DNA from: Escherichia phage Pu-Krd-SF1
Sequence record: PQ249395
Direction: 5' to 3' (one strand)
Length of the DNA: 64,000 nt
The notes under the pieces: generated by a model
Databases searched by the model: none
What the model was told of the DNA's origin: nothing
What the model saw: the letters and a program-made list of their open reading frames with translations, nothing else
Shown here: positions 54,220 to 55,809 of the stretch, piece by piece
Position numbering within the stretch: position 1 is the first letter of the stretch
How the letters are laid out: the number at the start of each line of letters is the position of its first letter
Position numbers and translations under genes: made by a program

Positions 54220-54402
54220 ATGGAATTGGTAAAGGTAGTTTTTATGGGGTGGTTTAAGAATGAAAGCATGTTTACTAAAGAAATCACAATGATGAAAGAT
54301 GACGTTCAATGGGCTACTACTCAATATGCTGAAGTTAATAAAGCATTAGTTAAAGCTTTCATTGATGACAAGAAAGTATGTGAAGTGGATTGCCGAGGAT
54401 AA
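54220..54402 (+). CDS. dmd: Dmd antitoxin (inhibitor of RnlA/LsoA)
   Basis: 60 aa, MELVKVVFMGWFKNESMFTKEITMM...; directly downstream of 41. Confidence 0.7.
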   Translation: MELVKVVFMGWFKNESMFTKEITMMKDDVQWATTQYAEVNKALVKAFIDDKKVCEVDCRG

Positions 54403-54403
54403 T

Positions 54404-54661
54404 ATGCATATTGTTTTATTTAAACCTACTCCGTATAACGTCAGGAAAAATACACAATTCAAAGCACTTATTGCCGATACATGGGAATTGGTGTTAGATA
54501 TTCCAGCAGAAGAAAGTCCTCCACTTGGTCGAGTGGAATTTATTAAGTTTGCTGTTCGTCCTACGAAGCGGCAGATTCGTCAGTGTAAAAGGTATTTTCG
54601 TAAGATCGTTAAGCTAGAGAAACAGTTTGTAACATGTGATTACGCAAAAGTTTTAAAATAA
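54404..54661 (+). CDS. hypothetical basic protein (positional 61.4)
   Basis: 85-aa ORF. Confidence 0.5.
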   Translation: MHIVLFKPTPYNVRKNTQFKALIADTWELVLDIPAEESPPLGRVEFIKFAVRPTKRQIRQCKRYFRKIVKLEKQFVTCDYAKVLK

Positions 54662-54663
54662 CT

Positions 54664-54694
54664 GTTTACTTTTATTGGAAATTGAGATACTATA
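54664..54694 (+). promoter_or_regulatory. T4-type early promoter
   Basis: GTTTAC and GATACTAT. Confidence 0.6.
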
Positions 54695-54722
54695 TAAACA
54701 TAAACTACTGAGGAGATTAATC

Positions 54723-55016
54723 ATGAAAAAATTTGTTTTTGCTGCAATTTTTGCTTTAGCTTCTTGTGCTGCTCAGCCTGCTATGGCAGGCTATGATAAA
54801 GATTTGTGCGAATGGTCTATGACTGCGGATCAGACTGAGGTTGAAACTCAAATTGAAGCAGATATTATGAATATCGTTGAGCGTGACCGTCCTGAAATGA
54901 AAGCTGAAGTGCAAAAACAGCTTAAGTCTGGTGGTGTAATGCAGTATAATTATGTTCTGTATTGCGATAAAAACTTTAATAATAAAAATATCATCGCTGA
55001 AGTGGTAGGTGAATAA
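54723..55016 (+). CDS. sp: Spackle periplasmic superinfection-exclusion protein
   Basis: 97 aa; signal peptide MKKFVFAAIFALASCAAQPAMA; SD gaggagattaatcATG. Confidence 0.75.
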   Translation: MKKFVFAAIFALASCAAQPAMAGYDKDLCEWSMTADQTEVETQIEADIMNIVERDRPEMKAEVQKQLKSGGVMQYNYVLYCDKNFNNKNIIAEVVGE

Positions 55017-55642
55017 TGCTTTATCAAATGCACAAGTGTAAAGACACGTACAAATATAAAGGTGCCCAGTGTTATATCATTAATCGTGAAAACGCAGGTC
55101 CAGGCCATTCGCATCAATCACGGTTTGTATTCGTTAAAAATAATGAAATTATAGCAGTTGCTAATTATATGCTTGTGACCAATGATGTTAATCCGGTGCC
55201 TTTCACATATGACAATCTAATGGACTTGGCATATGATTATAATTGGTTTAATCATGACAATTTAGTTCATATTGAAGGCGTAGGATTTGACATCTCTTAT
55301 TCTAGTTATTCGTTGTGCCCTATGAGCCGAGCTCATAAAGAGCCTGAATATTTTTCATTTCGTCGGCGTGTAGACTTTAAACACAGTACAGAGTATGTCG
55401 GTGGAATCTTTGTTAAAGATAATCGAATTACTCGCATTATTTATCCTTTGGGCTTTGGTCAAAAAGATATTGATGTTGATTTAGACTTTACTGAAAACAG
55501 CATTAATCATATTGCTTCTGTGTATTTTGATATTGATCACAAAATTGTAATATGTGGATATGAATTACCATCCGAAAAACAGTCTAAAGTAAATGTTTCT
55601 ATTGATGACCAAATTTTTAATGCTTTTATGAATAGAGGTTAA
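55016..55642 (+). CDS. hypothetical protein (positional 61.2)
   Basis: 208-aa ORF, ATGA overlap with sp. Confidence 0.55.
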   Translation: MLYQMHKCKDTYKYKGAQCYIINRENAGPGHSHQSRFVFVKNNEIIAVANYMLVTNDVNPVPFTYDNLMDLAYDYNWFNHDNLVHIEGVGFDISYSSYSLCPMSRAHKEPEYFSFRRRVDFKHSTEYVGGIFVKDNRITRIIYPLGFGQKDIDVDLDFTENSINHIASVYFDIDHKIVICGYELPSEKQSKVNVSIDDQIFNAFMNRG

Positions 55643-55644
55643 TA

Positions 55645-55809
55645 TGAAAACATATAAAGAATTTATCAAAGAAGATATGGTCGCTGGAGATTCAGGTGGT
55701 AGTCCTGAAAATATCTCTACTGGAACAACATCAGGCGCTGTAGTAAATAAAGGTCCTGAACAGATTCCTAAAAAGAAAAAAGAGGAATCTAAAGAAAAAG
55801 AAGAGTAAA
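55645..55809 (+). CDS. small protein with internal-protein-type N-terminus
   Basis: MKTYKEFIKEDMVAGD... 54 aa, Gly/Ser/Lys-rich; below the ORF-track cut-off. Confidence 0.45.

Follow-up and report, generated by a model that had tools for sequence, protein, structure and literature searches.

Between the genes for helicase 41 and primase 61, the DNA of Escherichia phage Pu-Krd-SF1 (record PQ249395; we analysed a stretch of 64,000 nucleotides, hereafter the window) carries a small gene, 61.1, whose 54-residue product is a three-part mini-protein: a 10-residue leader of the capsid-targeting sequence (CTS) type, a 28-residue copy of the N-fist of the capsid protein gp23, and a Lys-rich tail. The reading that we favour, with modest confidence, is that this gene belongs to the dmd-tifA-sp-adfA-61.1 cluster known from phage T4 and encodes a prohead-targeted substrate of the protease gp21. 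Taken by itself, cleavage by gp21 seems to us slightly short of an even proposition, and injection of the product is doubtful. In the searchable literature, neither the make-up of 61.1 from a CTS and an N-fist nor the long and short forms of its family turned up as described; the finding as a whole is mostly ordinary, with 61.1 as its one modestly new lead. The gene and its parts are laid out as follows.

55644..55808, + strand: gene 61.1, 54 aa; 52/54 residues identical to T4 gp61.1; matches phrog_1823 at E = 2.4e-33
55644..55673, + strand: 61.1 codons 1-10, the CTS-like leader MKTYKEFIKE, ending in the predicted gp21 motif I-K-E↓D
55674..55757, + strand: 61.1 codons 11-38, homologue of the gp23* N-fist (residues 66-91), by BLASTP and hhalign
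55758..55805, + strand: 61.1 codons 39-54, a Lys/Glu-rich tail (EQIPKKKKEESKEKEE), from the sequence

Protein comparisons with T4, here and below, are with the annotated T4T record, against which all five proteins of the cluster aligned full-length and without gaps. A Shine-Dalgarno sequence, GAGG, stands 5 nt upstream of 61.1, and its stop codon lies 2 nt ahead of the gene 61 ATG. An earlier reading of this DNA from its letters alone (the sequence-only reading) had recognised the 54-residue open reading frame (ORF) but placed it at 55645-55809, one base too high.

The leader is a specific signal within the window. Searching the six-frame translation of all 64 kb for M-x-x-[YF]-x-E-F-[IL]-x-E returned seven matches, all at ORF starts. 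Six of them fall in internal-protein (IP) loci (986, 1319, 4715, 8984, 9744 and 10071), where five of the six ORFs match PHROG families of internal head or internal virion proteins, and the seventh is 61.1. A related, stricter leader motif was observed 6 times, against 0 in 200 shuffles. The 61.1 leader is identical to the six IP leaders of the window at 22-28 of 30 nucleotides; the leaders at 986, 1319 and 10071 share 8/10 residues and 24-28/30 nt with it, and MKTYKEFIKE agrees with the MKTYQEFIAE/ITE/INE leaders of the window at 7-8 of 10 residues. Amber-suppressor work on the CTS has assigned targeting to residues 4 and 7 and processing to residues 8 and 10 (PMC9026906), and the ten-residue CTS suffices for the packaging of GFP, a nuclease or beta-galactosidase (PMC9026906, PMC3012670). 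Both sets of determinants are kept in 61.1: an aromatic residue (Y/F) at position 4 and Phe at 7 for targeting, and I8 and E10 (a hydrophobic residue at 8, Glu at 10) for processing. The same features (Y/F4, F7, I8, E10) are found in diverged short 61.1 homologues. The sequence-only reading had picked out the MKTYKEFIKE start as a CTS-like signature, and the motif scan, the shuffles and the critical residues bear this out as real and specific.

Because some homologues of 61.1 carry the automated name "major capsid domain-containing protein", we compared 61.1 with gp23. In an ungapped BLASTP alignment, 61.1 residues 2-38 matched gp23 residues 57-93 (15/37 identical, E = 7e-8), in a register that sets FIKE↓DMVAGD of 61.1 opposite FLTE↓AEIGGD of gp23, that is, with the maturation cleavage site aligned. 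gp21 removes the first 65 residues of gp23 (PMC9546572), and the N-fist comprises residues 66-91 of the mature protein, gp23* (PMC7136217). The match recurs in five genera, represented by T4, Acinetobacter phage Apostate, Aeromonas phage Aes012, Pseudomonas phage PspYZU05 and Buttiauxella phage GuL6. In most of these pairs the identity is 40-56% over 32-50 residues (E 1e-5 to 1e-9); the PspYZU05 pair gives a weaker match, at 48-52% over 21 residues and with E of about 0.003-0.03. A profile-profile comparison (hhalign) of the 61.1 family with gp23 residues 53-101 gave 97.4% probability and E = 1e-11, placing the KKKR of the family opposite M98-R101 (MVRR) of gp23, and the top PDB sequence match of 61.1 is gp23 residues 59-94. 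These alignments show that 61.1 residues 11-38 are homologous to the N-fist of gp23*, a relationship that the sequence-only reading had overlooked.

The likeness to gp23 is confined to this segment. A capsid-shell fold (HK97; P, A and I domains) is absent from 61.1, only gp23 53-101 being matched, and 61.1 drew no hits from Pfam or NCBIfam, with cut-offs relaxed to E <= 10 or E <= 1. Some of its homologues bear the automated name "major capsid (domain-containing) protein", which evidently picked up the gp23 similarity and is misleading; 61.1 is not a capsid protein. It resembles the gp23 N-terminus (propeptide end, LTE↓A site and N-fist; PMC7136217, PMC9546572) in register with the cleavage site, but lacks the HK97-fold body and has a Lys-rich tail in place of the N-arm and Gol segment that follow in gp23. 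We also observed that the critical CTS positions 4, 7, 8 and 10 stand opposite gp23 F59, F62, L63 and E65, among the last residues of the propeptide (L004:4425-5990). The final ten residues of the gp23 propeptide may thus have a minimal counterpart in the CTS of the internal proteins.

A tblastn search found a 61.1 homologue in 1,432 phage records, with hosts ranging from Escherichia to Vibrio, Aeromonas, Acinetobacter and Pseudomonas. The gene lies between helicase and primase in 9/9 genomes whose context was read (T4, Pu-Krd-SF4, six distant genera, and HX01), and these nine include genomes without dmd, tifA, sp and adfA. AdfA homologues, for comparison, occur in 485 records. The 61.1 family is conserved across the Straboviridae, unlike its variable accessory neighbours, a family-wide pattern that the sequence-only reading missed.

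In most genera, including that of the close T4 relative HX01 (Mosigvirus), the gene has a long form of 127-163 aa (phrog_2086). Long forms begin with a conserved, helical N-terminal domain (~95 residues), continue through a short segment that closes with hydrophobic-x-Glu, and finish with an MVAGD...IASG.T.GA...GP core and its Lys/Arg-rich tail; in T4-type phages the place of the N-terminal domain is taken by the 10-residue leader. Hydrophobic-x-Glu precedes the MVAGD core in 33/33 long forms (printed segments, read by eye) and is found in all short and long homologues examined, with the Glu conserved at >=90%, and the Lys/Arg-rich tail is likewise found across the family. At the DNA level, the 61.1 gene of the window is clearly homologous to that of HX01 from the Glu-10 codon onwards, with only weak, gapped similarity upstream (a shared F-K-E), so that the T4-type leader may be either a graft from an IP gene or a remodelled remnant. 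Over codons 10-43, the window and HX01 have 16 identical codons, 12 that differ only synonymously and 6 that change the amino acid. This excess of synonymous-only over amino-acid-changing codons points to purifying selection. We considered whether 61.1 could be a chance ORF or a decaying remnant; its occurrence in 1,432 records, together with clear purifying selection, rules this out.

The long-form N-terminal domain is itself widespread. Searches with it (phrog_2086/phrog_18642; HX01 L018:2070-2537) found 1,942 representative proteins at E <= 0.001, in which it almost always occupies the extreme N-terminus of a 160-470-aa protein with a variable C-terminus. A reusable N-terminal module would be expected to show this architecture. 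The domain has no match in Pfam, matches only families of unknown function in PHROGs, and has no matching solved fold. A distant relative in Melnitz (Kyanoviridae) lies near the primase, among hypothetical genes. Among the C-termini of the proteins carrying the domain (alignment A1; P0131-P0277), we observed very Lys-rich tails in P0162 and P0258, and a C-terminal segment of P0251 matches phrog_2859 and phrog_11358, the latter a 3,431-position profile.

In the reading that we favour, the leader of gp61.1 would bring it into the prohead core during assembly, and the N-terminal domain would do so for the long forms. The prohead protease gp21 would then cut gp61.1 after Glu-10, leaving a 44-residue, 4.6-kDa peptide that resembles the N-terminus of the capsid protein and that may either stay with the DNA through its Lys cluster or act on the partners of the N-fist during maturation. 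Cleavage would be recognised by an Asp-11 N-terminal peptide, DMVAGDSGG(N/S)PENISTGTTSGAVVNK, and by the semi-tryptic peptide DMVAGDSGGNPENISTGTTSGAVVNK; the uncleaved protein would give MKTFKEFIKEDMVAGD... instead. The plan of 61.1 resembles that of the T4 prohead core proteins gp67, gp68 and gp22, which are small, have charged tails and are cut by gp21 after hydrophobic-x-Glu inside the prohead, into small internal peptides. Their genes, however, lie in the late head block 20-67-68-21-22-23, and we saw no similarity between them and 61.1. A bolder and, in our estimate, unlikely extension is that gp61.1 and its long forms are an unrecognised head component or transient cargo across the Straboviridae, a paralogue of the gp23 N-terminus that enters the prohead by means of a removable module. 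That module would be the ~100-aa domain in most genera, replaced by or reduced to the 10-residue CTS-type leader in T4-type phages. Cleavage by gp21 would release an N-fist-like peptide to sit in gp23 N-fist sites or to travel with the DNA. Candidate sites would be the portal-facing positions, with their five disordered N-fists, or the density below gp24* that has no assignment (PMC9546572).

Several observations weigh against a prohead role. The late-promoter motif TATAAATA is absent within and near 54000-55900, the nearest + strand sites being at 15332 and 58416, whereas the IP loci do have such promoters. In T4, the 61.1 RNA is classed as early and the protein went undetected in time-resolved proteomics; the early RNA is weak evidence, because the RNAs of ipI-III are also classed as early. 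A mass-spectrometry study of the T4 head makes no mention of 61.1, gp61.1 appears in the searchable literature in two gene tables only, and we found no virion detection of 61.1 or its homologues in the literature and its supplements. The P1' residue of 61.1 is Asp, against Ala or Ser in the leaders and sites observed here, and the mature T4 peptide, with a pI of 5.0, is not net basic. The pores of the unexpanded head measure 14-17 Å, and peptides this small are expected to leak out (PMC9546572). The fixed place of the gene beside replication genes could point to a role in replication. The 61.1 leader of Dhakavirus has drifted (MKSFKEVMNE) while its IP leaders have not, an observation from one divergent genus.

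A comparison with the T4 internal proteins IPI, IPII and IPIII and their CTS (Mullaney & Black 1996; reviewed in PMC9026906) shows the same mixture. They have in common with 61.1 the leader pattern M-K-T-Y/F-x-E-F-I/L-x-E and the early class of their RNA. In contrast, 61.1 lies outside the IP loci, is without a late promoter, has Asp at P1' and has a mature part of 44 residues; its body is homologous to gp23 and conserved family-wide, whereas the internal proteins are variable folded cargo and poorly conserved (PMC9026906). We did not file 61.1 as an internal protein, because the late-promoter test failed. With no late promoter, an early T4 RNA, and a protein undetected in time-resolved proteomics and unmentioned in head mass spectrometry, the step that the sequence-only reading took from the signature to an injected peptide is not established.

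Separately, the six other CTS-leader ORFs of the window are all on the + strand, at 986-1258, 1319-1627, 4715-5281, 8984-9265, 9744-9929 and 10071-10373. The 188-aa ORF at 4715 (MKTYAEFLTE...) has as its sole PHROG match phrog_2280, a family with no known function, and the 61-aa ORF at 9744 (MKMYQEFIVE...) has the look of a phrog_2667 relative that has been truncated. Late-promoter motifs (TATAAATA) stand just 5' of some of these ORFs, for example at 9708.

The best-surviving alternative, though we consider it unlikely, is that 61.1 modulates head assembly without being cargo. As a mimic of the N-fist and cleavage site, it would compete with gp23 for gp21 or for the scaffold (gp22) and then be degraded or lost, never delivered; such a role would tune the timing of cleavage or head length. 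The homology spans exactly the cleavage site and the N-fist. In the unexpanded head this region of gp23 lies inside, probably touching the scaffold, which also speaks for the favoured reading; after expansion it lies outside, where it takes part in contacts between capsomers and contributes to the Soc site (PMC9546572); the substitutions A66D, A94V and G97S in this part of gp23 change head length (PMC9546572). Conservation across the family suits a morphogenetic role better than a host-specific one, the head-assembly gene 40 lies in the same neighbourhood, and small peptides can leave the unexpanded head. Early expression without a late promoter, on the other hand, would be unusual in a protein competing stoichiometrically with a late protein of very high abundance. 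It also counts against a modulator that 61.1 is not known to have a head phenotype or to be essential.

Less probable still is that 61.1 is a fifth counter-defence gene, acting early in the cytoplasm as a decoy of the capsid N-terminus that occupies or misleads a host sensor or protease for gp23. Capsid proteins are common triggers of abortive-infection systems; the Lit protease, for one, is activated by the Gol peptide of gp23 (about residues 93-122). Mimicry of a capsid segment by an early-transcribed gene would fit a decoy, as would the place of 61.1, with similarly early neighbours, in the published anti-toxin-antitoxin (anti-TA) island, where the genes left over have been named as attractive candidates for antitoxins. 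The similarity between 61.1 and gp23 stops just where Gol begins. The mimicry ends before the Gol segment, and 61.1 as a Gol/Lit mimic in particular was rejected, the similarity ending at gp23 93-101, before most of Gol. A decoy would have no need of a CTS-type leader or of the conserved hydrophobic-x-Glu. Moreover, 61.1 is kept in Vibrio, Aeromonas, Acinetobacter and Pseudomonas phages that are without dmd, tifA, sp and adfA, and it outnumbers AdfA in the record counts given above. Least probable is that 61.1 assists replication or, as a short upstream ORF, sets the level at which primase is translated, with the gp23 likeness as a historical leftover of no present role: the helicase-primase position in every genome read, the 2 nt between the 61.1 stop and the gene 61 ATG, and a Lys/Arg-rich tail that could bind nucleic acid would fit, but other ORFs lie between 61.1 and the primase in Aes012, FL15, Vibrio F86 and GuL6, and what is most conserved, the gp23-like segment and the Glu before it, is not required of a coupling ORF or a generic DNA binder.

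The surroundings of 61.1 are those of T4. The DNA from 54100 to 55900 is 100% identical to that of Escherichia phage Pu-Krd-SF4 and 97.6% identical to T4 in a search of phage records, 629 of which contain a match to it; by this measure the source of the window is a T4-type phage, Tequatrovirus. The gap between gene 41 (52734-54161) and gene 61 (55811-56839) is filled by five tandem + strand ORFs, whose products are 96-100% identical to their T4 counterparts, and the products of dmd, 61.4, sp and 61.2 match Pfam families at E = 7.5e-20 to 6e-137. The region is almost certainly the T4 dmd-tifA-sp-adfA-61.1 cluster in a close T4 relative. The sequence-only reading had named all five genes (dmd, 61.4, sp, 61.2 and 61.1) correctly, as full-length alignment to T4 confirms for each and Pfam for four. 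The features upstream of 61.1 are:

54162..54190, + strand: early-type promoter-like site 5' of dmd; TTTACA, 17 nt, TATAGT, with TG; 10/12 match
54220..54402, + strand: dmd, RnlA/LsoA antitoxin, 60 aa; 60/60 aa and 183/183 nt identical to T4
54404..54661, + strand: 61.4 = tifA, basic inhibitor of the ToxN endoribonuclease, 85 aa; 82/85 identical to T4; PF23945
54723..55016, + strand: sp, Spackle, 97 aa; 94/97 identical to T4; PF25676
55016..55642, + strand: 61.2 = adfA, anti-DarT factor A, 208 aa; 205/208 identical to T4; PF23813

The idea of an anti-TA island is already in print, and the four-gene part of the cluster is known and ordinary. Genes, order and the position between 41 and 61 are those of the T4 island dmd-tifA-(sp)-adfA (Srikant, Guegler & Laub 2022, eLife, PMC9391042; LeRoux et al. 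2022; Otsuka & Yonesaki 2012). The window differs from it by F41L, E82K and I83V in TifA (the 61.4 product), I5V, T8A and K53E in Sp, and R123H, I162S and P190S in AdfA. T4 omics data class dmd, tifA, sp and adfA all as early, RNA and protein alike.

Dmd matches PF17587 over residues 1-60 (E = 1.6e-46) and PDB 5hy3_B, "Antitoxin Dmd", at E = 1.8e-37, and is identical to the crystallised antitoxin. We infer from its 100% identity to the protein in which this activity was demonstrated (cited in PMC9391042) that it would bind and neutralise the RnlA and LsoA toxins. The tifA gene starts 2 nt past the dmd stop, and its product matches PF23945 (DUF7279) at E = 7.5e-20, with a pI of 10.0 and 18 K+R. 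It has the architecture described for TifA (PMC9391042): ~85 aa, a central basic cluster, and a position directly 3' of dmd. Srikant et al. reported that the basic 85-aa TifA binds and inhibits ToxN, that amplification of dmd-tifA is a T4 escape route from plasmid-borne toxIN, that dmd-tifA is transcribed from an early T4 promoter 5' of dmd, and that TifA homologues differ in potency (PMC9391042). The window TifA would likewise be predicted to bind and inhibit the ToxN RNase. A counter-defence role against ToxN, which the sequence-only reading had suggested with reserve, is thus in place as 61.4 = TifA, a protein inhibitor of ToxN (PMC9391042).

We also observed, at 54520-54537 inside tifA, an inverted repeat with 7-bp arms (TCCACTT/GAGTGGA) and a T-rich run after it, which was called terminator-like on both strands and may be a chance match. 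In the tifA-sp gap, 54664-54693 looks like a T4 early promoter by eye (GTTTAC, 18 nt, TACTAT), under the scan threshold; its position agrees with the "promoter downstream of tifA" of PMC9391042.

Spackle matches PF25676 (T4_Spackle) full-length at E = 4.8e-45, PDB 6x6o over residues 1-97, and 7cn6, the mature form, over 23-97. Its signal peptide is residues 1-22 (MKKFVFAAIFALASCAAQPAMA↓GYD), and the mature crystallised form begins at residue 23. The protein would be exported to act as a periplasmic inhibitor of the gp5 tail lysozyme of superinfecting phages, that is, in superinfection exclusion. For Spackle and Dmd, then, the names proposed from sequence hold up against T4 identity and solved structures (5hy3, 6x6o, 7cn6).

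The 61.2 product matches PF23813 (AdfA) over residues 1-208 at E = 6e-137, in keeping with the DarT counter-defence role that had been suggested for it: 61.2 is AdfA, an anti-DarT factor (PMC11257639), and the window protein would be expected to bind DarT. In RB69, the escape change R164H in AdfA is the DarT1-neutralising allele, the Arg/His state deciding DarT1 binding (PMC11257639). Residue H165 of the window AdfA corresponds to H168 of HX01 and to position 164 of RB69 (by the HX01 alignment, with the RB69 start counted from MHKNAPFK), so the window carries the "neutralising" His allele. The substitution I162S lies three residues ahead of His165. Deleting adfA in T4 gives no phenotype against DarTG1 (PMC11257639), because AdfN (gp30.3), the main anti-DarTG1 factor in T4, does most of that job; AdfN, which lies outside the window, had been left out of account by the sequence-only reading.

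Downstream of the cluster, the dam methyltransferase gene, which in T4 lies between dam.1 and gene 56, is absent at 56836-57626 of the window by comparison with T4T. Here the dCTPase gene 56 comes directly after dam.1 (56836-57036, - strand), with a 283-aa homing-endonuclease-like ORF (57601-58452) next in line, and the dam-less arrangement is identical in Pu-Krd-SF4.

For the biology of this phage, the cluster means that it has the standard T4 toxin-antitoxin countermeasures together with Spackle, in which a few substitutions might shift toxin specificity. For the family, the interest lies in 61.1. Head assembly is studied with T4 as the reference system, and the inventory of T4 head proteins counts as essentially complete; 61.1, small and conserved, with a leader that looks functional, a predicted gp21 site and an N-fist copy, offers a concrete hypothesis that is cheap to test. 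If that hypothesis is false, 61.1 stays among the "other antitoxin candidates" already proposed for the island. If it is true, the T4 head pathway would gain a new component, the origin of the CTS would be tied to the propeptide of the capsid protein itself, and a domain family of about 1,900 representative proteins with no known function (phrog_2086/18642) would gain a role.

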